DNA of 64,000 nucleotides from an uncultured Gammaproteobacteria bacterium (GTDB taxonomy: Bacteria; Pseudomonadota; Gammaproteobacteria; DATFLG01): assembly GCA_963830105.1 (NCBI GenBank), contig CAWHLH010000005.1, positions 154,226-218,225 of the forward strand. The letters are read 5' to 3'. Under the pieces are notes generated by a model. That model searched no databases and was not told where the DNA came from. It saw only the letters and a program-made list of their open reading frames with translations. Shown here piece after piece: positions 815 through 54,530 of this stretch. Made by a program: the position numbers and the translations under genes. How positions within the stretch are numbered: position 1 is the stretch's first letter; each line of letters begins with the position of its first letter.

Positions 815-1444
815 TTATCGTTCGTTGTACGAGCGCATCAGGCCCACCAGAACGCCCTGGATGATGACCTGCTCGGGGCGGTAGCGTTGTGATTCCAGGG
901 CGGCGTTGGCCGGATGGAGGATCACTGCGCCGGGCCGTTGTTCGATGCGCTTGAGGGTGGCTTCCTCGCCGTCGATCAGGGCCACCACGATTTCGCCGTT
1001 GCGGGCGCTGTCCCGTTGCTCGATGATCACCCGGTCGCCGTCCAGGATGCCTTCCTCGATCATGGAATCGCCGCGTACTTCCAGCACATAGCAGGGGCGG
1101 GCGGTGCGCAGGGCCGGGGGGATTGGAACCGGTTCCGGGTTGGGGACGGCTTCAATGGGCCGGCCGGCGGCGATGTAGCCCAGCCAGGGCAGAGTGTCCT
1201 CGCTTTGCCCGCGGTCACGGGACAGCCGGATGCCGCGCTGCTTGCCGTCCATGGGCTCCACCAGGCCGGCGGCGACCAGGGCCCGGATCTGTTTATGCAG
1301 GGAGCCGCGCGAGCGCAGGCCCAGCTCCCGGCACAGCATATCCAGGGTGGGCGGTGAGGCGCCCGCGGCTGCCCGCTCCAGCAGGTGCTCATGGATTTCC
1401 CGCTGTCGGCGGGTCAGATCAGCAATGGCTTGTCTGTTCTCCAT
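815..1444 (-). CDS. lexA: LexA transcriptional repressor (S24 peptidase)
   Basis: 209 aa. It has an N-terminal winged HTH, a Pro-rich linker, and a C-terminal S24 autopeptidase with the ...VRGDSMIEEGILDGD... Ser-Lys dyad region. Confidence 0.9.
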   Translation of the reverse strand: MENRQAIADLTRRQREIHEHLLERAAAGASPPTLDMLCRELGLRSRGSLHKQIRALVAAGLVEPMDGKQRGIRLSRDRGQSEDTLPWLGYIAAGRPIEAVPNPEPVPIPPALRTARPCYVLEVRGDSMIEEGILDGDRVIIEQRDSARNGEIVVALIDGEEATLKRIEQRPGAVILHPANAALESQRYRPEQVIIQGVLVGLMRSYNER

Positions 1445-1490
1445 CGGTTCTATAGTATCACGATAGAGAACGAATGGAGAACAGACAAGC
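1431..1490. promoter_or_regulatory. Extended imperfect palindrome spanning the divergent start codons; it contains GTTC-N7-GTTC (1435-1449) and GAAC-N7-GAAC (1467-1481) motifs and is a putative LexA operator
   Basis: The sequence is gtctgttctccatcggttctatag tatcac gatagagaacgaatggagaacagac. The outer 13 nt are perfectly inverted, and both divergent proteins start MENRQA as a consequence. Confidence 0.45.
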
Positions 1491-3915
1491 CATGTCCCTG
1501 CCCGCCGCCCAAGTCCCGGATGAGGCCGCTGCCGCCCAGTCGGATCGCGTTGCTGCTCTGGTAGGGCGCCTGAAGCGCAAGTACCGGGGCCGAATCACCG
1601 GCGAACTGGTGGTCCCGGCAAAGCCGGGCCGCTATGACCCTTTCCCTCCAGACCTGGAGCCACGGCTTGCGCAGGCCTTGCGCACCCGCGGTGTGGAGCG
1701 CCTGTACAGTCATCAGCGGGCGGCGTGGGACGCGGTCCGCGCCGCCCGCCACACCGTGGTGGTCACGCCCACCGCCTCCGGCAAGACCCTGTGCTACAAC
1801 CTGCCCGTGCTGCAAGCCGCCTTGCAGGACAAGGCGAAGGCCCTGTACCTGTTTCCCACCAAGGCCCTGTCCCAGGATCAGGTGGCCGAGATCCTGGAAC
1901 TGAACCGCGGCGGGGAACTGGGGGTGCGTGCCTACACCTTCGACGGCGACACCCCGGGCGATGCGCGCAAGGCGGTGCGCACCCGCGGGGACATCGTGGT
2001 GTCCAACCCGGACATGCTGCACCAGGGCATCCTGCCGCATCACACCAAGTGGGCCCAGTTCTTCGAGAACCTGCGTTATGTGGTGATCGACGAAATGCAC
2101 ACCTACCGCGGCGTGTTCGGCTCCCATGTGGCCAATGTGCTGCGCCGTCTGCGGCGCATCTGCCGCTTCTACGGCAGCGAGCCGGTGTTCATCCTGTGCT
2201 CGGCCACCATCGCCAACCCCGGGGAACTGGCCGAGCAGCTGATCGAAGCGCCGGTGCGGACCATCGACGAGAGCGGCGCGCCCCAGGGGGCGAAACAACT
2301 GCTGCTGTGGAACCCGCCGGTGATCAACCCGGACCTGGGCATCCGAGCCTCGGCCCGTTCCCAGACCACCCGCATCGCGCGCTATGCGGTGAAAAGCGGG
2401 CTGAAGACCATTCTGTTCACCCAGACCCGTCTGATGGTGGAGGTGCTCACCAAGTACCTCAAGGACGTGTTCGACCGGGACCCGCGCCGTCCGCCGCGGG
2501 TGCGGGCCTACCGGGGCGGCTATCTGCCCACGGAACGCCGCGATACCGAGCGCAAGCTGCGGGCGGGCTCGGTGGACTGCGTGATCTCCACCTCGGCCCT
2601 GGAGCTGGGCGTGGACATCGGCGCTTTGGATGTGTGCGTGCTGAACGGCTATCCGGGCACCATTGCCGGGACCTGGCAGCGACTGGGCCGGGCAGGGCGC
2701 CGCAACCGGCCGGCCCTGGGGGTGCTGGTGGCTACCAGCGAGCCGCTGGATCAGTACATCGTGCGCAATCCGGATTTCTTCCTGGGAGCGTCGCCGGAGC
2801 ATGCGCGCATCGATCCCGACCAGTTGCTGATCCTCATGGACCATATCCGCTGTGCGGCCTTCGAGCTGGTCTTTCGTGAGGGCGAACGCTTCGGCAAGGA
2901 AGACCTTCCGGAATGTCTCGCCTACCTGGAGGAAGAGGGCGTGCTGCATCGCGAAGGCGAACGCTGGCACTGGATGGATGACAGCTATCCGGCCAACAGC
3001 GTGAGCCTGCGCTCGGTGGCCGAGGGCAATTTCGTGGTCATCGACATTACCGACGGCGGTAAGCAGGTGATCGCCGAAGTGGACTACACCAGCGCGCCGG
3101 TGACCCTTTACGAAGGAGCGATCTACATGGTGCAGGCCAGGCCCTGGCAGGTGGAGCGCCTGGACTGGGAAGGACGCAAGGCGTTCGTGCGCCAGACCGA
3201 GGCCGACTACTACACCGACGCCATCGACTACACGAGACTGAAGATTCTGGAGGACTTCGAGCGGGCCTCGGGCCGCGGCGCCCATTGCGCCCGGGGCGAG
3301 GTGCACGTGGTGCGGCGGGTGGCCGGCTACAAGAAGATCCGCTATTACACCCACGACAACGTGGGCTACGGCAACGTGGACCTGCCCGACCAGGAAATGC
3401 ACACCACGGCTGTGTGGTGGCAGGTGGACAGCAGCGCCCTGGAGGCCGCCTTCGAAAGCCGCTGGCAGGCCCTGGACGGCTTTCTCGGCGCCGCCTATGC
3501 CATGCATTCGGTGGCCGCCCTGCTCACCATGTCCGAGCTGCGCGACCTGGGCCGCGCGGTGGGCGACGGGCAGGGTACCTGGTTCGCCACTGTGGACACC
3601 GACGGACGCGGGCGCATGCGCGGCGCGGACGGCGAACCCGTGGAAGCCGACACGCATGGCTTCGTGCCCACCGTGTTCCTGTACGACAACTATCCCGGCG
3701 GCGTCGGGCTGTCGGCGCCGCTGTTCGATCTGCGCGGGAAGGTGCTCGCAGGCGCCCATGCCCTGGTCACGAGCTGCGGCTGCCGCAACGGGTGCCCGGC
3801 CTGCGTGGGCCCGATCCTGGCCAGTGAAGAAACGCGTGGCGGATCGCCCAAGGCCGCCGCTCTGCGGGTGATCGATCTGTTGGCCGCGGGGCGTTCCAGC
3901 CGTGAGCACGCTTAG
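1474..3915 (+). CDS. DEAD/DEAH-box helicase with a C-terminal DUF1998/MZB zinc-binding domain (MrfA/YprA-like)
   Basis: 813 aa. It has a Walker A motif (TPTASGKT), a DEMH box (VIDEMHTYRG), a helicase C-terminal domain, and a C-terminal 4-Cys cluster (SCGCRNGCPAC). It overlaps the downstream gene by 14 nt. Confidence 0.8.
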   Translation: MENRQAMSLPAAQVPDEAAAAQSDRVAALVGRLKRKYRGRITGELVVPAKPGRYDPFPPDLEPRLAQALRTRGVERLYSHQRAAWDAVRAARHTVVVTPTASGKTLCYNLPVLQAALQDKAKALYLFPTKALSQDQVAEILELNRGGELGVRAYTFDGDTPGDARKAVRTRGDIVVSNPDMLHQGILPHHTKWAQFFENLRYVVIDEMHTYRGVFGSHVANVLRRLRRICRFYGSEPVFILCSATIANPGELAEQLIEAPVRTIDESGAPQGAKQLLLWNPPVINPDLGIRASARSQTTRIARYAVKSGLKTILFTQTRLMVEVLTKYLKDVFDRDPRRPPRVRAYRGGYLPTERRDTERKLRAGSVDCVISTSALELGVDIGALDVCVLNGYPGTIAGTWQRLGRAGRRNRPALGVLVATSEPLDQYIVRNPDFFLGASPEHARIDPDQLLILMDHIRCAAFELVFREGERFGKEDLPECLAYLEEEGVLHREGERWHWMDDSYPANSVSLRSVAEGNFVVIDITDGGKQVIAEVDYTSAPVTLYEGAIYMVQARPWQVERLDWEGRKAFVRQTEADYYTDAIDYTRLKILEDFERASGRGAHCARGEVHVVRRVAGYKKIRYYTHDNVGYGNVDLPDQEMHTTAVWWQVDSSALEAAFESRWQALDGFLGAAYAMHSVAALLTMSELRDLGRAVGDGQGTWFATVDTDGRGRMRGADGEPVEADTHGFVPTVFLYDNYPGGVGLSAPLFDLRGKVLAGAHALVTSCGCRNGCPACVGPILASEETRGGSPKAAALRVIDLLAAGRSSREHA

Positions 3916-5125
3916 GGACAGACTGGGCAAGCTCCAGTCGACCGACCCGGCTCTCACCCAGGCGGCCCAGGTTCGCTCTGGCCTGGGCGAGCGCATGCAG
4001 CGCCTGCGTGGCGCCGATCCCGAGCGGAGCGAGAAGGACAACGCGGTGCTGGCCGAGCGGCTCGGCGGTGACTGCATCGCCGAAGGCGTCATTGCGGTAC
4101 GGGAGACGTTGGCCCTGGAGCATGGTCATGGGCGCGTGCGTCTGCGCGAGGCGTTCGCGACGTCGTTGGACGCGCTTGCTCCCGGTCGGTCCGTAGGCAT
4201 CGAGGACCTGGTATTCATGGATACCGAGACCACCGGCCTGGCCGGCGGAACCGGTACGGTCGTGTTTCTGCTGGGGTTGGCGCGACTGGGGCCTGCAGGT
4301 CTGGAACTCATGCAGTTGGTGCTGACCCGCTTCTCCGGGGAAGCCGCGCTGCTGGAGGCGGGCCGTGAGTGGATGGCCCGCGGGCAGGCCGTGGTCACTT
4401 TCAACGGCCGCAGCTTCGATGTACCCCTGCTGACCGCCCGGTATCGCCTCAAGGGTCGGACGGATCCGTTTTCAGCGTTGCCCCAAATCGATCTGCTGCA
4501 TCCCACCCGGCGTGCTTTTGCGCGGCACTGGCCGGATTGCCGCCTGCAGAGCGCCGAACAGCGGCTGCTGGATTTTCACCGTCGCGATGATCTGCCTGGT
4601 GCCATGGCGCCCCAGGCGTGGTTCGACTGGGTACGGCGCGGCTCCATGGCGCTGCTGCCCGCGGTGGCGAAACACAACCGCTGGGACTTGCTTTCCCTGG
4701 CGGCGCTGGTGCCGGTTCTGGAAGACGTGTACCGCGACCCGGGAGCCTGGGGCGGAGATCCGCTGGCGGTGGCCCGTTTTCAACGGGGGCGGGGGGACGG
4801 CGCCAGTGCCCTGGCCATGCTGGAGGCCTACGGGCATAACCTCTGTCCCGCCGGCTCCAACGAACTGGCGCGGCTGCATCGCGACCAGGGCGACTGGGCG
4901 GCAGCGGTCGCCATCTGGCGGCGGTTGGCCGCTGACGACAACGTCGAAGCCCTGGAACGCCTGAGCAAGTTCTACGAGCATGTGTGCGGGGATTTTGCAC
5001 AGGCCTTGCACTATGCTGAACGATTGGCGCTGGTGGAGCGCGCCAATCCGGCTCACGCGCACCGCTTGCAGCGTCTTCATTCCCGTCTTGGACGACGGGT
5101 TTCCTTGGCGGCGGGCGGTTCCTGA
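3902..5125 (+). CDS. RNase H-like DEDD 3'-5' exonuclease (YprB/MrfB-like, RNase_H_2 fold) with a C-terminal TPR-like region
   Basis: 407 aa. It carries LVFMDTETTGL (exonuclease motif I), VTFNGRSFDVPLL, a DLLHPTRR...CRLQSAEQRLL block, and an HNRWDLLSL block, all typical of the YprB family. The C-terminus has helical repeats. Confidence 0.7.
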   Translation: MSTLRDRLGKLQSTDPALTQAAQVRSGLGERMQRLRGADPERSEKDNAVLAERLGGDCIAEGVIAVRETLALEHGHGRVRLREAFATSLDALAPGRSVGIEDLVFMDTETTGLAGGTGTVVFLLGLARLGPAGLELMQLVLTRFSGEAALLEAGREWMARGQAVVTFNGRSFDVPLLTARYRLKGRTDPFSALPQIDLLHPTRRAFARHWPDCRLQSAEQRLLDFHRRDDLPGAMAPQAWFDWVRRGSMALLPAVAKHNRWDLLSLAALVPVLEDVYRDPGAWGGDPLAVARFQRGRGDGASALAMLEAYGHNLCPAGSNELARLHRDQGDWAAAVAIWRRLAADDNVEALERLSKFYEHVCGDFAQALHYAERLALVERANPAHAHRLQRLHSRLGRRVSLAAGGS

Positions 5126-9377: not shown

Positions 9378-9842
9378 CTACCCGGGTTCAGGCGCATGAT
9401 CCGCGGCAAGTAGCCTATCGAAGGCGAGGGTGAGCTGATCGACAGCCGCCAGCACCGGCGGGGAAACCGGCTCCTCAGGTGCGCTTTGGCCAATCTCGAT
9501 GCCCCACAGCAGCGTCGGGCTCGGCAGCAGGCCCAACCGGTCGGCAAGGGCCAGCGCATCTCCCAGGCCCAGCCCGTGGCTGCTGAACGGCTGGCCCCAG
9601 CCCGGCGGGCAGGGGTCCATCGGCCAGCGCAGGTAGTGGAGGGTGCCCTCCGGGCGATCGGAGCGTACCCCGTCCACTACCAGCAGCGGTCCGTCCAGGG
9701 GCAGGTGGCCGAGCAATGCCATCGGCGAGTCGCATTGGATGCACGGGATATCCGGGTGCCGTTGCTGCAGGCGGCGGACCACCAGCCAGCCGATCTGGTC
9801 GTCGCCGGCGTGGGAGCCGATACCGATCACCTGCAGTGTCAT
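9378..9842 (-). CDS. [NiFe]-hydrogenase maturation endopeptidase (HybD/HoxW family) for the group 3b enzyme
   Basis: The N-terminus MTLQVIGIGSHAGDDQIGW is typical of HycI/HoxW-type proteases. Its ATG overlaps the large-subunit stop (ATGA). Confidence 0.75.
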   Translation of the reverse strand: MTLQVIGIGSHAGDDQIGWLVVRRLQQRHPDIPCIQCDSPMALLGHLPLDGPLLVVDGVRSDRPEGTLHYLRWPMDPCPPGWGQPFSSHGLGLGDALALADRLGLLPSPTLLWGIEIGQSAPEEPVSPPVLAAVDQLTLAFDRLLAADHAPEPG

Positions 9843-11137
9843 CCGCGGTGTACCCGCAGGTCCAGAAAATGGGTGGCGCAGGAGATGCACGGATCGTAGT
9901 TGCGGATGACCGTTTCGCACAGCAGGCGCAGCGCTTGGTCGTCGCGGTCCAGCTCGCCGGCTTCCAGGGCCCATTTGAGATCCTGTTCGATGCGGGCCTG
10001 GTTCTGGCTGGTAGGCGGCACGATGCGGCTGTCGGTCACTATGCCGCTGTCGTCGAGTTCGTAGCGGTGCCAGAGGAAGCCCCGCGGCGCTTCGGTGCAG
10101 CCGAAGCCGACGCCGGCGCGTGGCGTGGGTTCAAGGAGGGCCGCGGCCGGCGCCCGGTAGCGCTCCAGTATCCGGATCGCTTCCACGCAGCCGTAGTAGA
10201 TCTCCACCGCTCGCGCCACCACACTGTGGAACATGTTGCGGCTGGGCCAGGACAGGCCGGTGGCCTCCAGCAGGTCCTGCACCCGCGGCGGCAGCCGGTC
10301 CAGATTGAGATTCACACGCGCCAGCGGGCCCACCAGGTAGGGTTGGCCGTGCAGGTGGCTGTGCAGGGCGGTGGAATGGGGGACCTGGTGTTCCCGGAAA
10401 TGTTGGTCGAACTCGCGGATGTCGATATCCAGACCCGCGCTGGAAATCAGCCGCCCCTCGTTCATGGGGTACTCGTCCGGATGATGCAGGGCGACGCTGG
10501 TGAACTCCTGATCGCTGGCCGGCAGATCCAGCGAGGCGGTCCAGCGCACCAGTTCTTCGGCATCGGCCAATGCCTCGTGCAGCCGTTCCAGCAGGGCGCG
10601 GACTTCGGCGGGCGTGGGTGCACGGCTGAAGCCGCCCACCCGGGCGCCCACCGGGTGTACGGAGCGGGCGCCCAGGGCCGCGACGATGGCGTTGCCGAGC
10701 GCCTGCAGGCGCAGACCGCGGCGCACCTCGGCGGGATAGTCCTGCGCCAGGGCGGTAACGCTGGGGTAACCGAGAAAATCCGGCGCCGCCAGCATGTGGA
10801 TATGCAGGGCGTGGCTCTCCAGCCATTCGCCGCAGTAATACAGCCGCCGCATGTCCCGCACCCACGGGCCTGGCTCCATGCCGAAAGCCTGTTCGATGGC
10901 ATGGACGGCGCTCATCTGATAGGCCACCGGGCAGATGCCGCAGATGCGCGCCACCATGTCCGGCACCTCATGGTAGTCGCGACCCACCAGGAACTGTTCG
11001 AACAAACGCGGCGGCTCGTAGATGCGCAGCATGAGCTGCTCGATCCGCCCGTCCCGCACGACGAGCTCGAGGGCGCCTTCGCCCTCCACCCGGGCCAGAA
11101 CAGGAACATGGATGTCCACGCTGCGCCGCTCAGTCAT
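9839..11137 (-). CDS. hyhL: [NiFe]-hydrogenase group 3b large (alpha) subunit
   Basis: N-terminal RICGICPVAY and C-terminal DPCISCATH Ni-binding motifs are present. The real start is MTERRSVDIHVPV, which overlaps the small-subunit stop. Confidence 0.85.
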   Translation of the reverse strand: MTERRSVDIHVPVLARVEGEGALELVVRDGRIEQLMLRIYEPPRLFEQFLVGRDYHEVPDMVARICGICPVAYQMSAVHAIEQAFGMEPGPWVRDMRRLYYCGEWLESHALHIHMLAAPDFLGYPSVTALAQDYPAEVRRGLRLQALGNAIVAALGARSVHPVGARVGGFSRAPTPAEVRALLERLHEALADAEELVRWTASLDLPASDQEFTSVALHHPDEYPMNEGRLISSAGLDIDIREFDQHFREHQVPHSTALHSHLHGQPYLVGPLARVNLNLDRLPPRVQDLLEATGLSWPSRNMFHSVVARAVEIYYGCVEAIRILERYRAPAAALLEPTPRAGVGFGCTEAPRGFLWHRYELDDSGIVTDSRIVPPTSQNQARIEQDLKWALEAGELDRDDQALRLLCETVIRNYDPCISCATHFLDLRVHRG

Positions 11138-11915
11138 GGCTGTCTCCCAGGACCCGCTGGGAGGCCTCGGCAAACACCGTTTGGGCGCTGTGGATGAAGC
11201 GGTAACGACGGGCGATGGCCTCCGGCAGCAGGCCCAGGCCCTGGAAACAGCCTGCAAGGGCATCGGCGTTGGGGTTGTCGGACGGCCCGTAGCAGCCGTA
11301 GCAGTCCCTCCCGAAGCGCGGACACAGCGCACCGCAGCCGGTACGGGTCACCGGGCCCAGGCAGGGTTGTCCATGGGCCACCAGTACGCACACGTTCTGA
11401 TGGCGTTTGCAGTCCAGGCACACCTTGTCTGTTTCCGGGACCGGGGTGACGCCGAACAGCAAGGCCCGCACGGCGGCCAGCAGCTGGGCGCCGCTCACCG
11501 GGCAGCCCCACAGTTCGAAGTCTACCGGCACGTGGGCGGCGACAGGCGTCGCAGTGGCCAACGTCTCGATGTACTCCGGGCTGGCATAGACCCGCGCCAT
11601 CCATTCGCCGCTATCGGCGTTGTTGCGCAGGGCCTGCAGGCCTCCGGAAGTGGCGCAGGCACCGATGGTGATCAGCAGGCCACTGTTGGCGCGTACCTGC
11701 CGGATGCGGGCCTGTTCGTCCGGCGTGGAGATGCTCCCTTCCACGAAGGCAATGTCCACCGGCGCCTCGGGGTCCACCGCGCCGGCCTCGGCGAAGTGCA
11801 CGATCTCCACCCGCTCGGCCAGCTCCAGCAGATCCTCGCCCAGGTTGAGAAAGGCAAGCTGGCAGCCGTCGCAGGAACTGAACTTGTGGACCGCGATGCG
11901 GGGTTTGGTGCTCAC
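11130..11915 (-). CDS. hyhS: [NiFe]-hydrogenase group 3b small (delta) subunit
   Basis: It has the SCDGCQL and GACATSGG motifs of group 3 small subunits and no Tat signal. Confidence 0.85.
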   Translation of the reverse strand: MSTKPRIAVHKFSSCDGCQLAFLNLGEDLLELAERVEIVHFAEAGAVDPEAPVDIAFVEGSISTPDEQARIRQVRANSGLLITIGACATSGGLQALRNNADSGEWMARVYASPEYIETLATATPVAAHVPVDFELWGCPVSGAQLLAAVRALLFGVTPVPETDKVCLDCKRHQNVCVLVAHGQPCLGPVTRTGCGALCPRFGRDCYGCYGPSDNPNADALAGCFQGLGLLPEAIARRYRFIHSAQTVFAEASQRVLGDSHD

Positions 11916-12151
11916 TGTTCACCCCCGGGTGTGGGCGCGCCGGCTCCCGGTTCGATCAACGCCCCGCTATAGGCGCAGCTGCCCGCGGTTCGTGTCTTGC
12001 CTGCGTTGTTCGCGGTGGCGGTCCGCGGTTCGCACGCCAGCGCGGCTGTTGCCGCCGGGAAGCGTCGGTTGGCGTTCGGGAGCCCGGTCCGGTCCGTCAT
12101 TGGCGTTCTCAGCCTTGCGTGGCGCGTGGTTTGCCGGTCGTTGCGATTCAT

Positions 12152-12984
12152 TCAAAACCCCCGGCGGCCCATCAGCGCAGCCAACTCGCTGTAGGCGAAC
12201 ACGGGTCCGTTGCGGCACACGAAGCTGCCGCCGATCTGGCAGTGGCCGCAGTGGCCCACGGCGCACTGCATGTTGCGCTCCATGCTGACGTAGATGTCTG
12301 CGTCTGCGAGTCCCAGGGCGCGCAGCTCGCGCACCGCCGCGACCATCATGGGCTCGGGTCCGCACATCATGCACAGCGTGCGGGCGGGGTGAATGGCGAT
12401 CTTGTCGAACAGATCGGTGATCAGTCCGACATGCCAGGGCCAGGCGGGTCCGCCCTTGTCGGCAGCCAGCAGCACCTGCGTGTCCGGATGCCGGGCCCAG
12501 GCCTCGTACTGTTCGCGCCACAGCAGATCCTTGGAGTGCTTCACGCCTTGCAGGATGGTCAGCTTTCCATACCGGTCACGCCGGCGCAGGATGTAATGGA
12601 TCGCGGCCACCACGGGCGCGCAGCCCAGTCCCCCGGTGACCACCAGCACGTCCTTGCCTTCCGCGGCCTTCAGCGGCCAGCCACGCCCGTAGGGTCCCCG
12701 GATGCCGATAGAGTCCCCTGCCTGCAGGGCCGCGAGACCGCGGGTCACCCGGCCCAGGGCGCGCACGGTGTGATCCAGCAGGGAATCGTCCCGCGGGTCG
12801 GAGACGATGGATATGGGCACTTCCCCGACTCCGTAAAGGTAAAGCATGTTGAATTGGCCGGGTGCGAAACGGTAGCTTCGCCGTGCCTCGCTGTCGCTCA
12901 ACCCCAGGCGCAGGGTGAACACGTCCGACGCTTCCTCAATGCGCTCCACGATGCGGGCGGGGTGGGGCAGATAGGGGCTGGTCA

Positions 12985-12985
<1 letters not shown>
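12152..12985 (-). CDS. hyhG: Group 3b hydrogenase gamma subunit (FAD/NAD(P)-binding oxidoreductase with a [2Fe-2S] cluster, anaerobic sulfite reductase B-like)
   Basis: The real start is MTSPYLPHP (277 aa). It has an RxYS FAD motif, VLVVTGGLGCAP, and a C-terminal CAVGHCGHC cluster. Its ATGA overlaps the beta subunit. Confidence 0.8.
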
Positions 12986-14079
<1,094 letters not shown>

Positions 14080-14335
14080 GGGGTCATGCTACCGGGGAAG
14101 TGGAAGTGCCTGCTTTGAGCCCTATCAATAAACCGGCGGAATTCCCACCTGCGTATGACATGGTCCTTGTCCGGATGCGTGGGGGACAGTCAGCATGGCA
14201 GAGGCGGGCGGCGGGAACAACCCGCACCGCTGGGGTGGGCGGCCAGCGGGTCTTGGCGGGCATCGGCAGGCGTGTCCACCGAGCCCACAGTCGGCGTCTG
14301 GGCGGTTCCTGCAATGCCTGGTGGGCGATCCGCCA

Positions 14336-14677
14336 TCAATCCGTGCGCTCTATGTTCACCACATCCACCAGGGTGCCCCACATGTGGAAGCTCACCAGGC
14401 CGGGTTTGGTGCGCAGCGTAGCCCGTACTTTCAGGTCCTGATGCTGAAAATCCTTGGGCAGGTTCACCGGATCGTAGTGGGCGCCGTCGCTGGCGACGAT
14501 ACCCCAGAAGCCGCCTTCGATCTCCAGGTGTACGATTTTGCCGGTGATGGTCACGGTTCTGGCCTCCTGGCTGGTGGCGGGCGCGCTAGCGCCGGCCGTG
14601 TTCTCGGCGGCGCAGCCGGCGGCAGCGAGGCCCACGGTGAGGGCGGTAGCGAGCAGCAGATGACTGAGGCAGTTCAT
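14336..14677 (-). CDS. Small lipoprotein of unknown function
   Basis: There is a signal peptide with a lipobox (LAAAGC). At 113 aa, it lies between hypE and hyhB. Confidence 0.5.
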   Translation of the reverse strand: MNCLSHLLLATALTVGLAAAGCAAENTAGASAPATSQEARTVTITGKIVHLEIEGGFWGIVASDGAHYDPVNLPKDFQHQDLKVRATLRTKPGLVSFHMWGTLVDVVNIERTD

Positions 14678-14694
14678 GGCGGCATCCGGATGAT

Positions 14695-15705
14695 TCAGCA
14701 GATTCTCGGCAGCGGGTCGTCTTCCAGTTCTTCCAGGAAACGCTCGCCTCCCAGTTCGGTTTCCAGCACCACATGGCTGCGACCTTGCTCGATGCAGCCG
14801 ATGATGGCGGCTTGCGGGCACGGGCCGCGCAGGGCCTGCAGGGCGGCCTCGGCATGGTCGGTGTCGACCACCGCCACCACCCGGCCCTCGCAGGCCAGGT
14901 ACAGCGGGTCGTAGCCCAGTATGTCGCATACCGAGCGGACCGGATCGCGCACCGGGATGGCCGCCTCGCGCAGGCGCACGGCCAGTTTGGCGGTGCGGGC
15001 GATCTCGTTGGCGACCGTGGCAAGTCCTCCGCGGGTCGGGTCGCGCATGAAACGCAGGCCCGGAATCCGTAGCAGCGCCTGGCAGGCGGGCAGTACGCTG
15101 GCCGCATCGGACTGCAGATCGCCCCGCAGTCCGAACTGCTCCCGGGCAAGCATGACCGCGGTCCCATGATCGCCTACCGGCCCGCTGACCAGCACGGCGT
15201 CGCCCGCCCGCACCTGGCGCAGGCCCAGTTTTACGCCCGGCTCCCGCACGCCCAGGCCGGTGGTGGCGAAGTAGATGCCGCCGCCTTCGCCGCGGGGCAG
15301 CACCTTGGTATCGCCGGCCACGATCTGCACGCCGGCCTCGCGGGCGGCGCCGGCCATGCTGGCCAGGATCCGTTCCAGCACGCTCACCGGCAGACCTTCT
15401 TCGATGAACGCGTTCAACGTCAGGTAGCGGGGTGTGGCGCCGGACACGGCCAGGTCGTTGACGGTGCCGTGTACCGCCAGGCTGCCGATGGTGCCGCCGG
15501 GGAACTCCAGGGGTTGTACCGTGAACCCGTCGGTGGTGATCACAACCTCGCCGTTGTGCTCCAGGGGTACGGCGGCGGCGTCGGCGTCGGTGTCCAGCAG
15601 GGGGTTGGCCAGATGGCGGGCGAACAGTTCCTCGATGAGCTCGCGCATGAAGCGCCCGCCGTTGCCGTGGGCCAGAGCGATGTGGGTGTCGAGCTGTGCC
15701 GCCAT
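14695..15705 (-). CDS. hypE: Hydrogenase maturation protein HypE
   Basis: It has the AIR-synthase-like fold and the conserved C-terminal ...PRIC. Confidence 0.9.
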   Translation of the reverse strand: MAAQLDTHIALAHGNGGRFMRELIEELFARHLANPLLDTDADAAAVPLEHNGEVVITTDGFTVQPLEFPGGTIGSLAVHGTVNDLAVSGATPRYLTLNAFIEEGLPVSVLERILASMAGAAREAGVQIVAGDTKVLPRGEGGGIYFATTGLGVREPGVKLGLRQVRAGDAVLVSGPVGDHGTAVMLAREQFGLRGDLQSDAASVLPACQALLRIPGLRFMRDPTRGGLATVANEIARTAKLAVRLREAAIPVRDPVRSVCDILGYDPLYLACEGRVVAVVDTDHAEAALQALRGPCPQAAIIGCIEQGRSHVVLETELGGERFLEELEDDPLPRIC

Positions 15706-15737
15706 GGGCGAATCCTTTGTACGTGTCCCGGATTGGA

Positions 15738-18029
15738 TCAGATTACGGTGGGTCGTGCTGTGACGCCGGCCTCGATTGCCTGTCCGAAGCTGATGCCGCC
15801 GTCGTTGGCCGGCAGCCGCTCGGGCAACCACACCCGGAAGCGGTCGGCGGCCAGCAATGCCAGCGCCTGCTCGGTGAGCCGACGGTTCTGGAACACCCCG
15901 CCCGTGAGCCCGACCTGCGTCACGCCGGTGTCGGCCCGTATCTGCCGGGCCTGGGCCAGCAAGGCGTGGGCGAGGGAAGAGTGGAGGCATGCCGCCCGTT
16001 CCGCGACGGTCCGCCGGCCATCCTGCAGCATCGGCAGCAGCGCCGCCCAGTCGGTACGGTACAACCCGCTGCCGTCCGGCGCCAGCGGCAGGGTTACGGG
16101 CTGGGCGTCGCCGGTGCAGGCCGCCTCCAGCCACATGGGCCCCTGGCCCTCGAAGCTGGCCTCGCTGACCAGCCCGGTCAGGGCGGCGGCGGCGTCGAAC
16201 ACGCGCCCGGCTGCGCTGGACAATGGCGCGTTGAGGCCCCGCTCCCAAGCGCTGCGAAGCAGTCCGGTGTCGGGCGCCTGATGCCAGGCTATGCCCGCCT
16301 CCCAGCACAGGGCGGCCGCGCTGCGCCAGGGTTCGCGCCCCGCCTTTTCGCCGCCGGGCAGCCGGAAAGGACGCAAGGAGGCGACGCGTCTCCAGGCTCC
16401 GGGCCGCCCCAGCAGAGCCTCGCCCCCCCACAGGGTGCCGTCTTCCCCAAGGCCGGTGCCGTCCCAGGCGAACGCCAGCAGGTCGCCGGCGAGGGCATGC
16501 TCGGCGTACAGCGCACCGGCGTGTGCCCGATGGTGATAGACGCGGGTGACGGGAAGGGACTGCCGTGCCGCCCAGCGGCTGCTCTGGTAGCCGGGGTGGG
16601 CATCGCAGGCGATACGTTCGGCGCGCACGCCGTACAAGGTCTGCAGCTCGCCGATCAATTGCTCGAACACCGCCAGGCTGCGGGGCGTGCCCAGATCGCC
16701 GATATGGGGGGAGACCACCGCACGCCGTCCCCACGCGAGTGCTACGGTGCACTTCATGTGGCCGCCCACGGCAAGCAGGGGACGGTCCAGCGCGAAGGGC
16801 AGCTCCAGCTCCAGAGGCGCGCCGCCCCGACCCAGACGCAAGGGCCGGGGCATACCGGCGATGGGCCGGAACACGGAATCGTCGGCGGGACGCTGGATGG
16901 GCCGGTTGTGGTGCAGGAAGGCATCGGCCACCTGCGCCAGACGGCGTTCCACCCGGTCCTCATCGGTGAGCACCGGTTCGCCGCTGATATTGGCGGAGGT
17001 GGCCACCAGCGGGCCCCCGAGGCTGTCCAGCAGCAGGTGGTGCAAGGGACTGTAGGGGAGCATCAATCCCACTTCGCCCAGGCCCGGGGCGATGGACGGT
17101 GCCAGCGGCGCGTCCCCGCGCAGGGGCAGCAGTACGATGGGTCGCATCGGTGAGGCGAGCAGCCGCGCGGCTGCAGCGTCCGGTCTGGTCAGCGCCCGAA
17201 CGGCTGCCAGCCCATCTCGGCCCCGCGCGGCTACCATCACCGCCAGGGGCTTGTGAGGCCGGGGCTTGCGGCTGCGCAGCCGGGCCACCGCCGACTCGTT
17301 GGCGGCATCGCACAGCAGGTGGTAGCCGCCGATGCCCTTGACGGCGACCACTGCGCCGCTGCGCAGTGCGTGCGCGCAGGCGTCCAGGGCTTCAGAAGTG
17401 TCAGCGACGGGTTCGGTCCCGGGACGGACGAAGGTCAACTGCGGGCCGCAGCTCGGGCAGGCGATCGGCTGGGCGTGAAAGCGCCGGTCGAGGGGGTCGC
17501 GGTATTCGCGCGCGCAGTCCGGGCACAGATCGAACCCGGCCATGGTGGTGTTGGGCCGGTCGTAGGGCAGTGAGCGGATCAGGGTGTAGCGCGGTCCGCA
17601 CTGGGTGCAGTTGATGAACGGATACCGGTAGCGCCGGTCGGCGGGATTGTTCAATTCCTGCAGGCATTCAGGGCAGGTGAAGTAGTCCGGCGGCACGTGG
17701 ATGTCGGCATCGGGTCCCGTCGCGCTGGGCACGATGCGAAAGTCCGCCCGGGGGCCGCGCGGCGCCGCGTGGGCGGCCAGCAGCTGCGGCTGGGCGATGG
17801 CCGGTGCATCGCTCAGCAGGCCGGCTTCGAACGCCTCCACGGCCGTCGGCGGGCCCTGCACGTGAATGCGCACTCGACCGACTTCGTTGCGCACCCAGCC
17901 GCTGAGCCGCAGGCTGTGGGCGAGCCGGAAGATAAAGGGCCGGAAGCCCACTCCCTGCACCTGGCCGCCCACCAGCAGTTCACGGGCGATTTCATCGGCA
18001 GCGGGCGCAGACCGGCCATTCAGGGGCAT
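15738..18029 (-). CDS. hypF: Carbamoyltransferase HypF
   Basis: It has an acylphosphatase domain (VQGVGFRPF), two Zn fingers (CPECLQE...CTQCGPRYT and CPDCAREY...CPSCGPQ), a YrdC domain, and a Kae1-like domain. Confidence 0.9.
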   Translation of the reverse strand: MPLNGRSAPAADEIARELLVGGQVQGVGFRPFIFRLAHSLRLSGWVRNEVGRVRIHVQGPPTAVEAFEAGLLSDAPAIAQPQLLAAHAAPRGPRADFRIVPSATGPDADIHVPPDYFTCPECLQELNNPADRRYRYPFINCTQCGPRYTLIRSLPYDRPNTTMAGFDLCPDCAREYRDPLDRRFHAQPIACPSCGPQLTFVRPGTEPVADTSEALDACAHALRSGAVVAVKGIGGYHLLCDAANESAVARLRSRKPRPHKPLAVMVAARGRDGLAAVRALTRPDAAAARLLASPMRPIVLLPLRGDAPLAPSIAPGLGEVGLMLPYSPLHHLLLDSLGGPLVATSANISGEPVLTDEDRVERRLAQVADAFLHHNRPIQRPADDSVFRPIAGMPRPLRLGRGGAPLELELPFALDRPLLAVGGHMKCTVALAWGRRAVVSPHIGDLGTPRSLAVFEQLIGELQTLYGVRAERIACDAHPGYQSSRWAARQSLPVTRVYHHRAHAGALYAEHALAGDLLAFAWDGTGLGEDGTLWGGEALLGRPGAWRRVASLRPFRLPGGEKAGREPWRSAAALCWEAGIAWHQAPDTGLLRSAWERGLNAPLSSAAGRVFDAAAALTGLVSEASFEGQGPMWLEAACTGDAQPVTLPLAPDGSGLYRTDWAALLPMLQDGRRTVAERAACLHSSLAHALLAQARQIRADTGVTQVGLTGGVFQNRRLTEQALALLAADRFRVWLPERLPANDGGISFGQAIEAGVTARPTVI

Positions 18030-18037
18030 GGCGGTAT

Positions 18038-19156
18038 TCAGGCCGGGTCGGCCGTTGCGCTCGCGTCGGGTTCACGCACGCCGGAGGCCCACCAGATGCG
18101 GCAGGCGCCCTCGTCGGAGACCATGCACGGCCCGATGGGTTTGCGCGGCGTGCAGGCGCGCCCGTAGAGCTGGCACTGGTTGGGGTAGATCTTACCGAGC
18201 ACGACGCGCGCACAGTCGCAGCCGGGTGGCATCTGGCCGGCGCGTTTGCGGTCGGGAGTGGTGTGGGTGGGCAGCTGCAGGCGGGCGTTGTGGGCCGCCA
18301 GCCCGGGTTTGAGCTCAAAGCCGGAGCGGGCAATGGTGCCGACTCCGCGCCAGTTGGCATCCACCACGTCCATGACTTCATCGAGCATGCGCCGGGCACC
18401 GGGGTTGCCGTCGGGTCGGACCAGCTCGGGATAGCAGTTGTCCAGGAAGCGGCGCCCTTCCAGATGCTGGCGCAAGGTGGAATACATGGCCGCCAGCAGG
18501 GACTCCGGGCTGAACCCGGCCACCGCCGCGGGAATGCGGTGCTCGTCCACCACGAACTGCCATTCCTGCGGCCCCATGACCGTGGCCACATGGCCAGGGG
18601 CGATCAGGCAGTCGAAGCCCGGCGCTTCGGATTCCAGCAGCATGGCCACCGCCGGCCAGGTCAGGCGGCCCGAAAGCAGCAGTAGCAGGTTGGCGGGCAT
18701 GCCCTGGGCGGCCATGGCGGCCACCGGTGCCGTCGTGGTCTCGAAGCCGGCGGCAAAGAACACCACCGTGCGCTGGGGGTGGCTTTCTGCGATCCGCACC
18801 GCCTCCAGCGGCGAGGCGATGGGGTGCACATCGGCGCCCGCCGCCTTGGCCTGTTCCAGGGAACGTGCCTGGGCGCGGGGCACGTTCACCGGCACCCGCA
18901 GCATGTCGCCGAACGCCACCAGGAGCGCGTCCTCGTGAAGGGCCAGCTGGATGGCGGCGTAGACATCCTCTTCCGGGCACACGCAGACCGGACAGCCCGG
19001 GCCGGGGATGAGTTCGACGTTGGCGGGCAGCGCACCGCGCAGACCGGCCATGCTGATGGAACGCTCGTGACCGCCGCACACGTTCATGATGCGCACCCTG
19101 CCCTCCAGGGGAAGGGCGTGTATGCGGGCCAGCCACTCCTTCGCCGTCGCGGTCAT
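18038..19156 (-). CDS. hypD: Hydrogenase maturation protein HypD
   Basis: The CGGH, GPGCPVCV and FETT motifs are present. Confidence 0.9.
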   Translation of the reverse strand: MTATAKEWLARIHALPLEGRVRIMNVCGGHERSISMAGLRGALPANVELIPGPGCPVCVCPEEDVYAAIQLALHEDALLVAFGDMLRVPVNVPRAQARSLEQAKAAGADVHPIASPLEAVRIAESHPQRTVVFFAAGFETTTAPVAAMAAQGMPANLLLLLSGRLTWPAVAMLLESEAPGFDCLIAPGHVATVMGPQEWQFVVDEHRIPAAVAGFSPESLLAAMYSTLRQHLEGRRFLDNCYPELVRPDGNPGARRMLDEVMDVVDANWRGVGTIARSGFELKPGLAAHNARLQLPTHTTPDRKRAGQMPPGCDCARVVLGKIYPNQCQLYGRACTPRKPIGPCMVSDEGACRIWWASGVREPDASATADPA

Positions 19157-19213
19157 GGGCGCTTTCCCTGCAGGACATGGCTCGGGGGTGAGGGGCGGCG
19201 CCCGGGTCGGCGT

Positions 19214-20065
19214 TCAGCCATGGTCATGTCCGTGGTGGTGATCGGGGCCTTGATGGAGGTGGAAGCGGGCCCCATCGGTCTGTATCGCCGGACGCAGCGT
19301 CTCGCTGGCGGCGATTCGTTGGCGATGGAGGGACAGCTCATGGCGCAGCCATCCCATCCAGGCGTCCAGGCCGCGCCCCTTGCGGGCCGAGAGCTCCAGC
19401 ATGGGTGCGTTGCTGGCCAGCTGGCGCAGGAAATGTTCGGCGCGGCGGGGTTCGAAGTCGTCGAGCACCTCCAGCAGATCGATCTTGGTCAGCAGCATGA
19501 GATCGGCCGCCCGGAACATGACGGGATACTTCGCCGGCTTGTCGTCGCCTTCGGTCACCGACAGCAGGGTGACATTGCGATGGTGGCCCAGATCGAAGCT
19601 CGCCGGACAGACCAGGTTGCCCACGTTCTCGATGAACACCAGATCCAGCTCGTCCAGGTCCAGTTGATGCAGGGCGGTGTGCACCATATGGGCATCCAGG
19701 TGGCAGGCGCTGCCGGTGGCGATCTGGACCGCGGGCACGCCTTTGGCACGGATGCGTTCGGCGTCGTTTTCGGTTTCCAGATCGCCCTCGATGACCCCGA
19801 TCCGCAAACGTCCCGCCAGGGCATCCAGGGTGGCTTCCAGCAGGGCGGTCTTGCCGGAGCCGGGGGAGGACATCAGGTTGATGGCCAACACGCCATGACG
19901 GTCGAAGTGCGCACGGTTGTGGGTTGCCTGATGGTCGTTTTCCGACAGCAGTCCCTGCAATACCTCCACGGCCGCCCGGCCGTCGCCGGTGGTGGCAAGC
20001 TTGCCGTCCGCTCGTACCAGGTGTTCGTTGCCGGGCGTCACGTTGCAGCCGCAGGTGTCGCACAT
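19214..20065 (-). CDS. hypB: Hydrogenase nickel-incorporation GTPase HypB with a C-terminal His-rich tail
   Basis: The real start is MCDTCGCN (the CxxCGC motif). It has a GSGKT P-loop. There is an unusual C-terminal extension ...HLHQGPDHHHGHDHG. Confidence 0.85.
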   Translation of the reverse strand: MCDTCGCNVTPGNEHLVRADGKLATTGDGRAAVEVLQGLLSENDHQATHNRAHFDRHGVLAINLMSSPGSGKTALLEATLDALAGRLRIGVIEGDLETENDAERIRAKGVPAVQIATGSACHLDAHMVHTALHQLDLDELDLVFIENVGNLVCPASFDLGHHRNVTLLSVTEGDDKPAKYPVMFRAADLMLLTKIDLLEVLDDFEPRRAEHFLRQLASNAPMLELSARKGRGLDAWMGWLRHELSLHRQRIAASETLRPAIQTDGARFHLHQGPDHHHGHDHG

Positions 20066-20118
20066 GGTTGTTGTCCCCCGTGTCGGTCCGCCGGGCGGCA
20101 TGCGCCCGGCGGCAGTAG

Positions 20119-20481
20119 TCAGTTGATGGTCGGCTCGGACTGCAGCAGTTCGACGCTGGCGAGCACCAGTTCGTCTCCGCTGATCAGGCGGGTGTGAAAG
20201 TCGCCGCACGCGGCGCACACCAGCCGGTTGGGCGCGGCGTCGGTTTCAGCCGCACAGCTGTCGCAGCGTACCCGCACCGGCAGTTGCTCGATGACCAGTT
20301 CCGCGTCGTTGGCGACGGTGCCGGCGCACGCCAGCGGAAAAGCCTGTTGCAGCAGACGGGGTTCGATGCCGGAGAGCGGACCGACCCGCACGATGACCCG
20401 CTCGACCGACTGGGCCTGGTGCTCGGCGGCGATTGCCGTTACCTGTCGGAGCATGCTCTGACAGACCGACAGCTCATGCAT
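20119..20481 (-). CDS. hypA: Hydrogenase nickel insertion protein HypA
   Basis: It has an MHE start and a CxxC...CxxC zinc site. Confidence 0.85.
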   Translation of the reverse strand: MHELSVCQSMLRQVTAIAAEHQAQSVERVIVRVGPLSGIEPRLLQQAFPLACAGTVANDAELVIEQLPVRVRCDSCAAETDAAPNRLVCAACGDFHTRLISGDELVLASVELLQSEPTIN

Positions 20482-20716
20482 TGCCGGCTTCGCCTACGGT
20501 TGCCAGCATTTGGTCGTAGAGCTCCCAGGCCGAACGCGCTTCCTGAGCGGTGAGCTTCTGAATGGCGTAGCCCACGTGAACCATCACGAAATCGCCCTGC
20601 GCGACGGTCTGGTCCTGGAGCAGGAACAGACTGACGTCGCGTTGCACACCCTTGGCTTCGCAATGGGCTATGAATCCATCGACTGCGTTCACCTGCATGG
20701 GTATGGCGAGACACAT
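20474..20716 (-). CDS. hypC: Hydrogenase assembly chaperone HypC
   Basis: The real start is the MCLAIP motif. Confidence 0.8.
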   Translation of the reverse strand: MCLAIPMQVNAVDGFIAHCEAKGVQRDVSLFLLQDQTVAQGDFVMVHVGYAIQKLTAQEARSAWELYDQMLATVGEAGNA

Positions 20717-21234
20717 TCGCGGGGGATCTCCTGTCAATGGGTAGGCGCAATACGCCCAAGTTCAGTATAGGGCCATTTCAGCGCCTGACCACCGGTTTGT
20801 CCATACCGGGTCATCCAGAATCGGGGGGGAAATTGACATGGATCAGTGTCGGTGCGGGGTGAGCGTGTATGGTGATTTCACAAATGAACCACTATTGGCA
20901 TCGCCGTGAAGAGCAACAAAAAAGCACAACACGCGTGCGGCAGTTCCAGCCCCATCTTCTGCGTGCGTCGGTACTCCCCGCTGCCGCGCGCTTCAGCCGT
21001 TGTGTCCTGCACAGAGCGCCGCCCGACGGCGCCCCATGGGGTCGGGCGTGGGTCAGCACCCTTGCGCCAGCACCGTGGGGAACCAACGATCGTGCGGTGC
21101 GGTCGGGCGCGCGTGAGTACATCAGCAGATAAGCATGTATGGATGAACTCGCCGGGTTTGAGGTTCGGCCATTGAACGGTATCGATACAGTGACAGACGA
21201 GGCGACATCCCAAGAGCCCGCGACCAGCGATCGG

Positions 21235-21693
21235 ATGGTGGTGCTGGGTTTGGGCAATACCCTGCTGAGCGATGAAGGCGTCGGGGTGCATATCATCGAT
21301 TATCTTCGCCGTCAGGCGCCACTGCATGGCGTCGACTACATTGATGGCGGGACCCTGAGCTTTACGCTCGCCGGACCCATCGAGTCCACGGACACGCTGA
21401 TCGTCGTCGACGCCAGCGAGCTGCAGGCGGCGCCTGGCACGGTACGCTGCTTCCAAGGCGAGGAGATGGACGGATTTCTGGGCAGCAATCGCAAACGCAG
21501 TGTCCACGAGGTCAGTCTGCTCGACCTGCTGGCCATCGCGCACCTGGCGGGCCACCTGCCCGCGCGCCGGGCATTGGTTGGAATCCAGCCGGCCAGTACG
21601 GACTGGGGCGACGCGCCCACCGAGGCGGTCGCCGAGGCGATACCGCGTGCCGCGGAACTGGTGCGGGAGCTGATCGAGGAGTGGCGGCAATGA
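21235..21693 (+). CDS. [NiFe]-hydrogenase maturation endopeptidase (HyaD/HupD family) for the hyn enzyme
   Basis: It starts MVVLGLGNTLLSDEGVGVH, typical of HupD/HyaD. An alternative upstream ATG at 21139 is possible. Confidence 0.7.
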   Translation: MVVLGLGNTLLSDEGVGVHIIDYLRRQAPLHGVDYIDGGTLSFTLAGPIESTDTLIVVDASELQAAPGTVRCFQGEEMDGFLGSNRKRSVHEVSLLDLLAIAHLAGHLPARRALVGIQPASTDWGDAPTEAVAEAIPRAAELVRELIEEWRQ

Positions 21694-22115
21694 ACGGTTT
21701 GGACGGTATCGGTGTGCAGGTGGTAACCCGCGACGCGGATGACGCCAGTGAGGCCAACGCCTGGGCGCTGCTGCACGAGCTGGACGGCATGCTGGATGCA
21801 TTGCTGCAGGACGGCGAGGAGAGCAGCATCGACCTGCGCAGCATTCCCATGACGACGGCCGATCGGGAGGTACTGGCAAGAGTGCTGGGCGAAGGGGAGC
21901 TGAACGCCAGCATCGATGCCCTCGGTCCCAGTCGGGTGCGGGAGACCGGCATCCATGGCGTCTGGTGGGTGACGCACCACAACACCGATGACGCCGTCAT
22001 CGCTGAATTCCTGGAAGTCTCTTTCTGCCCCGACATTCTGCGCAGCCACATCGACGACGTGCGGGACACGCTCGAAAGTCTGCGCACGCAACTGGTACAA
22101 CACAGGGAATCCTGA
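21681..22115 (+). CDS. Putative hydrogenase expression/formation accessory protein (HupH/HyaF-like domain?)
   Basis: 144 aa, overlapping the protease stop. It carries a GVWWV block reminiscent of the HupH C-domain. The family call is tentative. Confidence 0.4.
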   Translation: MAAMNGLDGIGVQVVTRDADDASEANAWALLHELDGMLDALLQDGEESSIDLRSIPMTTADREVLARVLGEGELNASIDALGPSRVRETGIHGVWWVTHHNTDDAVIAEFLEVSFCPDILRSHIDDVRDTLESLRTQLVQHRES

Positions 22116-22140
22116 TAACGGCACTTTGGGAGGTGATCGC

Positions 22141-23205: not shown

Positions 23206-23207
23206 CC

Positions 23208-25219: not shown

Positions 25220-25291
25220 CGATCCGATCGGCACGGTTCCCGCTGCCTGAATCGTCATCCGAAACACGTGAACAGCCTTAAGGAATAGCCG

Positions 25292-27049: not shown

Positions 27050-27145
27050 CCGGAACCGGGGGCCCCGTCGGGGGTGCCCGGGGCCTGCGGGGCCGGGCTG
27101 ACGGCGGTGGCCCCGGCTCCCTGACGGCTTTTGGTGGCTGTTTTC

Positions 27146-27169
27146 CACGCGCGCTCCGGCGCGCGTTTT
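27146..27169 (+). terminator. Putative rho-independent terminator downstream of hynL
   Basis: The stem cacgcgcgc / tccg loop / gcgcgcg is followed by TTTT. Confidence 0.45.
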
Positions 27170-27338
27170 CGTGCGCTGCCGCGCAATCGGCAGTGCACGC
27201 CCCGTGGTAGTGCAGTGGCTGACAATCTCCCACGCGTGCCTGCTATTCTACTGAAATCCCCGGCCGACCCTGGTCTGATTGCCGAGGCGATCCGGATCGC
27301 AAGTCGACGCGGGGACTGACAAAGAAGCGATGTAGCCA

Positions 27339-54527: not shown

Positions 54528-54530
54528 CGC

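Follow-up and report, generated by a model that had tools for sequence, protein, structure and literature searches.

LexA operators and related systems

In Alphaproteobacteria such as Rhodobacter, Sinorhizobium and Caulobacter, the LexA repressor recognizes the direct repeat GTTC-N7-GTTC (PMC4951493, PMC9578287, PMC8565304), and tandem LexA sites at the lexA gene itself are also known (PMC4951493, PMC9578287). The present work addresses boxes of this type in a gammaproteobacterium. They flank a proposed bidirectional promoter of two divergent genes, lexA and mrfA, at positions 1425–1493 of a 64,000-nucleotide stretch of DNA from an uncultured Gammaproteobacteria bacterium (assembly GCA_963830105.1, contig CAWHLH010000005.1, positions 154,226 to 218,225), referred to throughout as the window. 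A gammaproteobacterial metagenome-assembled genome, GCA_049581805.1, was matched to it as its source.

Outside Alphaproteobacteria, a precedent for the alpha-type direct repeat is offered by Acidobacterium capsulatum, whose LexA box Mazon and colleagues reportedly explained in 2006 by lateral acquisition of an alphaproteobacterial lexA (cited in PMC4951493). Departures from CTGT-N8-ACAG, the canonical SOS box of Gammaproteobacteria and Betaproteobacteria, include the non-canonical LexA motif of Sideroxydans, GAACGaaCGTTC. Other non-canonical motifs in classes that normally use CTGT-N8-ACAG are the TTAG-N6-TACTA of Xanthomonadales and the motif of Pseudomonas putida LexA2 (PMC4951493). No literature report of a GTTC-N7-GTTC LexA box in Gammaproteobacteria was found, in a search that left many subscription-journal papers outside its reach.

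Two further systems resemble parts of the locus. MrfAB (YprAB) of Bacillus subtilis is a helicase and exonuclease pair that acts in the repair of mitomycin C damage (PMC7797055, PMC11194089), and LexA is not mentioned in the text searched on B. subtilis mrfAB. Bidirectional sigma-70 promoters in which the −10 elements overlap, with positions 2 and 6 pairing and start sites 18 bp apart, have been described by Warman et al. (bioRxiv 10.1101/2020.01.31.928960); for promoters of this class in general, divergent starts separated by 7–25 bp are expected.

Two direct-repeat boxes between lexA and mrfA

Region 1425–1493 is very probably the shared control region of two divergent units, lexA(-SRAP) and mrfA-mrfB, and would harbor two direct-repeat LexA operators. 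Box 1 (GTTCTCCATCGGTTC, 1436–1450, plus strand) is a GTTC-N7-GTTC repeat conserved in relatives, with a position weight matrix (PWM) score of 22.9 against a training median of 22.8. Box 2 (GTTCTCCATTCGTTC, 1468–1482) lies on the minus strand, reads GAAC-N7-GAAC on the plus strand, and scores 25.6. The centers of the two boxes are 32 bp apart, about three helical turns. An earlier sequence-only reading of this DNA had reported GTTC-N7-GTTC on both arms of a palindrome at this place; the repeats are there, each 1 nt further to the right than it put them. Its assignment of the boxes to the alphaproteobacterial direct-repeat type rather than the gamma type is borne out, CTGT-N8-ACAG having no match in the entire window, and the positions of the boxes agree with its proposal that they are placed to control both lexA and a divergent repair operon. 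The bare GTTC-N7-GTTC motif occurs four times in the window, where 1.24 occurrences are expected, which is weak evidence when taken alone. Those at 55241 and 47847 were rejected as operators, the former lying inside the clpS coding sequence and the latter having a low PWM score.

The gene at 815–1444 on the minus strand encodes a bona fide LexA of 209 aa. Its product exceeds the TIGR00498 cutoff (156.1 bits against 110.95) and combines an N-terminal winged-helix DNA-binding domain (PF01726, 7.8e-9) with a C-terminal S24 peptidase domain (PF00717, 1.6e-26). The Ala-Gly cleavage site A93-G94 (IAAGRP) and the catalytic dyad S127 (GDSM) and K165 (TLKR) are invariant in 24 sequences of its clade. 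Downstream of lexA, at 3–350 on the same strand and cut by the window edge, is a gene for an SOS response-associated peptidase (SRAP; PF02586, 2.7e-44), an adjacency kept in the close relatives L083, L085 and L089 (L numbers denote the individual loci and contigs compared).

On the plus strand, an mrfA/yprA-type DEAD-box helicase is encoded at 1492–3915, in an open reading frame (ORF) that is open from 1474. It matches the Pfam families DEAD, Helicase_C, WHD_HRQ1 and, at the C-terminus, the zinc domain MZB (PF00270, PF00271, PF22982 and PF09369), and its score of 635 against TIGR03817 is below the cutoff of 874. The following gene, at 3902–5125, overlaps the end of mrfA by 14 nt and encodes an mrfB/yprB-type exonuclease with an RNase_H_2 fold (PF13482, 2e-33). 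By its domains, this divergent operon corresponds to the MrfAB/YprAB module, a superfamily 2 helicase with an MZB (DUF1998) domain followed by a gene for an RNase H-fold 3'-5' exonuclease. It shares with the B. subtilis pair the DEAD, Helicase_C, winged-helix and MZB domains and the adjacent DnaQ/RNase H-fold exonuclease; its function here is predicted, and it differs from B. subtilis mrfAB in sharing an operator with lexA.

The mrfA-mrfB pair is present in about 14 related loci. It stands head to head with lexA in L008, L010, L013, L018, L020, L023, L026, L037 and L039, and likewise in the closest relatives of the locus, L083, L085, L087 and L089. In L015, where 1.4 kb separates mrfA from lexA, mrfA is served by a promoter of its own, TTGCAC-GTTCTCCATTCGTTC-TATAAT, and the metagenome contig L096 carries mrfAB with a double box and no adjacent lexA.

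Conservation of the boxes in a LexA clade

Our comparative analysis drew on 80 fetched loci encoding relatives of this LexA, about 50 of which belong to the same clade (52–68% identity). The hosts include Sedimenticola, Methylococcales, Thiotrichales, Competibacterales, Thiohalomonadaceae, Ectothiorhodospiraceae and two Burkholderiales-type metagenome-assembled genomes (MAGs). Nearly all lexA upstream regions of the clade show the same succession of GTTC-N7-GTTC, a −10-like element and GAAC-N7-GAAC. Exact GTTC-N7-GTTC sites number 53 in the 11.5 kb of lexA windows from −200 to +30, with 40 of the 50 loci positive, compared with 20 sites in 364 kb of flanking DNA, an 84-fold enrichment; shuffled lexA upstream regions give 0.26 sites. 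The spacing is equally strict, a 6-nt spacer being found once and an 8-nt spacer three times in the same 50 regions, which contain no CTGT-N8-ACAG, no GAAC-N4-GTTC and no Xanthomonad motif. The family consensus is tGTTCTCtaTTtGTTCT, with an almost invariant T after each GTTC.

Among the ten loci that lack an exact site, six have boxes with one mismatch, and L013 and L027 have boxes further upstream. Two clade members, L003 and L055, show no recognizable box within 200 nt upstream of lexA even with one mismatch allowed; there, lexA may either belong to a longer operon or be differently regulated. More distant gammaproteobacterial LexAs, at 40–43% identity, are also preceded by GTTC-N7-GTTC (Thiothrix L068, HTCC5015 L071 and L067). 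The 16-mer of box 2 adjoins the 5' ends of lexA or mrfA in L015, L018 and L037, and a metagenome scan for exact copies of it (GTTCTCCATTCGTTCT) returned 120 stretches, 10 of which directly border a lexA and/or mrfA homologue on its 5' side; the other 110 were discarded as unrelated occurrences.

As a separate observation, TAGAAT-GTTCTCCATTCGTTCT stands directly upstream of the start codon of a dnaE2-like gene (MPVLPFAELSALSNFTFLKGAS...) in L150 (1846–1861) and L167 (7128–7143). This gene has neither imuA nor imuB in front of it, and these cases were not counted as support.

Conservation of this kind at lexA promoters, in 40 of 50 loci and with a strict N7 spacing, is strong, if indirect, evidence that the boxes are functional. 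Their interpretation as LexA operators is well supported by these comparisons, and LexA itself is the presumed binding protein. The sequence-only reading had called such a box unusual in a gamma-like genome. The arrangement is not peculiar to this genome, being the norm for a large LexA clade that covers Sedimenticola, Methylococcales, Thiotrichales, Competibacterales, Thiohalomonadaceae and some Burkholderiales MAGs.

The repressor itself appears not to be a canonical gammaproteobacterial LexA. It is 32% identical to Escherichia coli LexA and 41% identical to two alphaproteobacterial LexAs, and its DNA-binding domain is 25–28% identical to those of alphaproteobacterial LexAs. In a neighbor-joining tree, which is crude, without bootstrap and built on a biased sample, it forms with other gammaproteobacterial LexAs that have direct-repeat promoters a separate clade beside the alphaproteobacterial pair.

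Set against the alphaproteobacterial system, the boxes thus share the tetranucleotide, its direct orientation, the 7-nt spacer and a site at the lexA promoter that implies autoregulation. They differ in that the hosts are Gammaproteobacteria and a few Burkholderiales MAGs, that their LexA is only about 41% identical to the alphaproteobacterial proteins, and that the boxes, which are predicted sites, are mirrored around a shared −10 region. Unlike the lateral case of A. capsulatum, the LexA here constitutes a large clade of its own. The non-canonical motifs of Xanthomonadales, P. putida LexA2 and Sideroxydans likewise pair a different LexA with a different motif within a class, but they are palindromic, differ in sequence, and are absent from the 50 lexA upstream regions.

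Proposed promoters and start codons

The core of the control region (1451–1458) is proposed to consist of overlapping −10 elements that serve both strands. For mrfA, the plus strand offers TATAGT (1451–1456) or TAGTAT (1453–1458), and for lexA the minus strand offers TACTAT (1457–1452). The proposed mrfA −35, TTGTCT (1430–1435, plus), lies inside lexA codons 4–5, and its TTG (1430–1432) is invariant in alignment A2. The mrfA promoter would provisionally fit TTGnnn-N17-TAnnnT, with TTGTCT followed by TAGTAT, or by TATAGT at 15 nt, and box 1 fills the gap between its −35 and −10. The stand-alone mrfA promoter of L015 has the same layout of TTGCAC, box and TATAAT. For lexA, a −35 of TTCTCC (1476–1481, minus), 18 nt from TACTAT, is provisionally suggested by analogy with Sedimenticola lexA promoters (TTCCCT-N17-TATAAT, in a TATAAT-AGAAC layout); box 2 overlies it and lies in the mrfA 5' leader. 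Other invariant positions in alignment A2 are GTTCTCCAT (1436–1444), GTTCT (1447–1451), T1453, A1454, T1458 and GAGAAC (1466–1471). TATAGT and TACTAT overlap with positions 2 and 6 base-paired, the arrangement reported by Warman et al.; the promoter predicted here differs in that its proposed −35 elements lie inside neighboring coding sequences and that a repressor box stands on each side. Transcription is provisionally predicted to begin near 1463–1465 on the plus strand and 1444–1445 on the minus strand.

The lexA start codon (CAT at 1442–1444), the only candidate start of the gene, falls within the spacer of box 1. The first three lexA codons, ATG GAG AAC, are the reverse complement of GTTCTCCAT, and L083, L085, L087 and L089 all keep the MEN start in frame. 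The location of the start codon inside the box would account for the recurrence of an N-terminal MEN- in LexAs that are only about 68% identical. No Shine-Dalgarno sequence precedes the ATG at 1444, and with transcription starting near 1444–1445 the lexA mRNA would be leaderless or nearly so.

The start of the helicase calls for a choice between two codons. An ATG at 1474 (plus) in the right arm mirrors the lexA ATG in the left arm, and as a result both ORFs read MENRQA. The sequence-only reading took both proteins to begin with this peptide, which would mean that both genes start within the palindrome and that the mirrored codons were selected. Here the ATG at 1474 indeed shares the reading frame of the helicase and is the first possible start downstream of a stop, and the corresponding ATG is in frame also in L018 and L037. 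In the closest relatives L083, L085 and L089, and in L039, however, it is out of frame. In L083, L085 and L089 the protein begins with a conserved MSLPA, which matches the ATG at 1492, and homology with other MrfA proteins begins only at residues 23–36. A GGAG inside box 2 (1476–1479, plus), the likely Shine-Dalgarno sequence of mrfA, stands at ribosome-binding distance from this downstream ATG, 12 nt before it as against 6–8 nt in relatives, and the NCBI gene call of 807 aa corresponds to the 1492 start. Selection of mirrored start codons is therefore very unlikely. The helicase most likely starts at 1492, the very case in which the sequence-only reading itself would have given up the shared peptide. 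Because the box ATG is out of frame in relatives, MSLPA is conserved and the NCBI call is 807 aa, the common MENRQA is best regarded as an accident of this genome or of ORF calling.

The palindrome

A quasi-palindrome of 69 nt, belonging to neither strand in particular, spans the entire control region (1425–1493). The palindrome of about 60 bp that had been noted at 1421–1500 is thus real and was understated. Its arms, 1425–1454 and 1464–1493, are each 30 nt long and 90% complementary; the center is imperfect, and the outer arms (1425–1444 and 1474–1493) are perfect, as had been claimed, over 20 nt instead of 13. These outer arms form the sole perfect inverted repeat of at least 16 nt within 80 nt in the window, and by our own estimate the chance expectation is about 5e-6. 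An independent Logan assembly (L002) contains an identical palindrome. Since synteny at the locus is preserved in all relatives, a mobile-element or terminal-repeat origin was rejected.

Such symmetry raises the question of whether the whole palindrome acts as one operator, read through its inverted GTTC...GAAC arms by a dimeric regulator, LexA or another. Inverted repeats do make up most known LexA sites (PMC4951493), and strongly symmetric arms occur here and, perfect over 19, 18 and 17 nt, in L013, L018 and L022. The distance between the inner GTTC and GAAC nevertheless varies among relatives from 12 to 29 nt (17–19 nt in lexA-mrfA loci), while the N7 within each box is fixed. Several promoters have one box only (L011, L014, L015 and L024), the box following directly after TATAAT at the lexA promoters of L011, L014 and L024. 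The outer symmetry, moreover, is not kept in the closest relatives. One extended operator is accordingly a highly unlikely reading. Given the variable gap and the existence of single-box promoters, the functional units would be two separate direct-repeat sites, and the palindrome would result from their mirror-image placement on either side of a shared promoter core. The idea that the palindrome is itself the functional unit, fusing two start codons, fails on the same variable gap and on the absence of the outer 11 nt of symmetry from the nearest relatives.

The palindrome could also act through structure, as a DNA cruciform or as an RNA hairpin serving as attenuator or terminator, and not as a protein-binding site. 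As single-stranded DNA it folds at −27.5 kcal/mol (z = −9.7). A search of 300–1600 against Rfam gave only generic microRNA-hairpin matches below threshold, caused by the palindrome, and an RNA family was rejected. What is conserved, however, is the tetranucleotides and TAnnnT rather than pairing. The outer stem is absent in relatives, there is no T-run terminator, and transcription likely starts inside the palindrome, which would leave neither mRNA with both arms. A structural role is therefore extremely unlikely, and the two direct-repeat sites remain the preferred account of the region.

The perfection of the outer arms is a feature of this genome. Between box 2 and the ATG at 1492, the window has AGACAAGCC (1483–1491, plus), where L083, L085 and L089 have only 5 nt (GAGCC, GCCTC or ATGTC). 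Through the 4 additional nucleotides and some substitutions, the right arm mirrors lexA codons 4–7 exactly; the nearest relatives lack the symmetry that results over the outer 11 nt. Multi-base changes by which a quasi-palindrome becomes perfect are a known signature of template switching (PMC7202029, PMC3820800), and the outer 11 nt probably arose by such a quasi-palindrome mutation and not by selection. Selection for fully symmetric promoters is less probable, yet it deserves consideration, since the change created in this genome only an alternative lexA promoter on the minus strand, with a −35 of TTGTCT (1488–1483) 17 nt from TATCGT (1465–1460), which mirrors the TTGTCT-N17-TAGTAT of the plus strand. 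Relatives do without it, the change shifts the mrfA GGAG from 8 to 12 nt before the start, and the template-switching signature fits instead. Concerted evolution of the two arms was set aside, the signal for homogenization being weak (spacer identities of 4.04/7 within loci and 3.56/7 between loci, p about 0.02).

Proposed regulation of the divergent units

In the arrangement proposed here, box 1 would fill the spacer of the mrfA promoter and cover the transcription and translation starts of lexA, while box 2 would overlie the −35 of lexA and the beginning of the mrfA leader with its ribosome-binding GGAG. As each box would overlap core elements of both promoters, LexA bound at either one should block both, and with centers 32 bp apart the two boxes would share one face of the helix. 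Occupation of one or both boxes by LexA dimers would repress lexA(-SRAP) and mrfAB together; once DNA is damaged, LexA would cleave itself under stimulation by RecA and both promoters would be freed.

Several observations weigh against this scheme or against its wider evolutionary setting. The window, the only stretch of this genome examined, contains no recA, uvrA or imuAB-dnaE2; its larger ORFs encode hydrogenase, HypF, Lon-like protease, PurB, aconitase, MnmA, Icd, ClpA and TrxB-like proteins. For boxes at promoters other than that of lexA, relatives lend partial support, with separate boxes at mrfA in L015 and L096 and at a small ORF in L004, L017 and L027. A strict scan of 1200–1700 for sigma-70 and terminator consensus sequences found nothing, and the proposed hexamers, which are weak matches, were for this reason assigned by comparison only. 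The proposed lexA −10 is not recognizable at the same place in L087, which, together with the negative scan, makes the promoter assignments provisional. Finally, at 41% identity and with a crude neighbor-joining tree, the LexA clade is not demonstrably of alphaproteobacterial origin.

Neighboring genes and side observations

A small conserved ORF of 49–55 aa accompanies lexA in some relatives: L004 (1754–1912, plus), L017 (4010–4159, plus) and L027 (2344–2511, plus), with weaker matches in L034 (4680–4793) and L029 (4657–4785). Its N-terminus shows the motif F/I-x-MRDQV-x-DR-V and its C-terminus a hydrophobic helix, and it is preceded by GTTC-N7-GTTC boxes of its own in L004 (1618 and 1649), L017 (3923) and L027 (2248); in L027 it precedes lexA in the same operon. 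An ORF with the F/I-x-MRDQV motif was not found in the 64-kb window. The product is a candidate for a small membrane protein induced in the SOS response, perhaps one that inhibits division.

Direct repeats of other kinds, with an 11-bp period, were seen upstream of distant LexA genes from Acidobacteria (L061, L062, L066, L069, L074, L076 and L079) and from Patescibacteria-type loci (L060, L063, L065, L072, L073 and L078). They sit between TTGACA and the −10, as in TTCGCCTTTTATTCGC and TTCGGTTATTTTTCGG, and suggest that direct-repeat LexA sites occur in several further phyla.

Within the window, the non-coding gap between lexA and the SRAP gene (351–814) measures 464 nt, compared with 45 nt in L083, and includes an element of 246 nt (481–726) bounded by 27-nt inverted repeats (481–507 and 700–726, 85% complementary), with a further inverted repeat nested inside (558–574 and 668–684) and no Rfam match. 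The element looks like an insertion resembling a miniature inverted-repeat transposable element, or a structured RNA. The only other perfect inverted repeat of at least 12 nt with a short spacer, at 54490–54530, closely follows an icd-like gene and probably acts as a terminator. Region 9800–29800 is taken up by a large NiFe hydrogenase cluster, with small and large subunits, HypF, a second hydrogenase-like ORF, Fe-S/CCG proteins and a LonB/LonC-like protease, and is consistent with a hydrogen- or sulfur-oxidizing lifestyle.

Implications for SOS regulation in Gammaproteobacteria

Taken beyond the single locus, the comparisons tip somewhat in favor of a large and apparently undescribed LexA lineage that would use GTTC-N7-GTTC and not CTGT-N8-ACAG across basal gammaproteobacterial orders (Methylococcales, Sedimenticolaceae, Thiotrichales, Competibacterales, Thiohalomonadaceae and Ectothiorhodospiraceae) and in some Burkholderiales. 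Its regulon would include mrfAB, SRAP and the new small membrane protein, a candidate division inhibitor, and in part of the lineage the lexA start codon would form part of the operator, so that a leaderless lexA mRNA is implied.

LexA-binding motifs serve as markers for the evolution of a whole regulatory network, and the direct-repeat motif has so far been treated as an alphaproteobacterial trait with one exception by lateral transfer. If the lineage is real, the SOS regulons of methanotrophs, sulfur oxidizers and related environmental bacteria would become predictable from sequence, and the MrfAB helicase and exonuclease, together with SRAP, would find their place in an SOS regulon. A second, independent protein lineage would also become available in which to study the recognition of a direct repeat by a LexA dimer. 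The locus itself would offer a compact natural example of one repressor acting on both arms of a bidirectional promoter.

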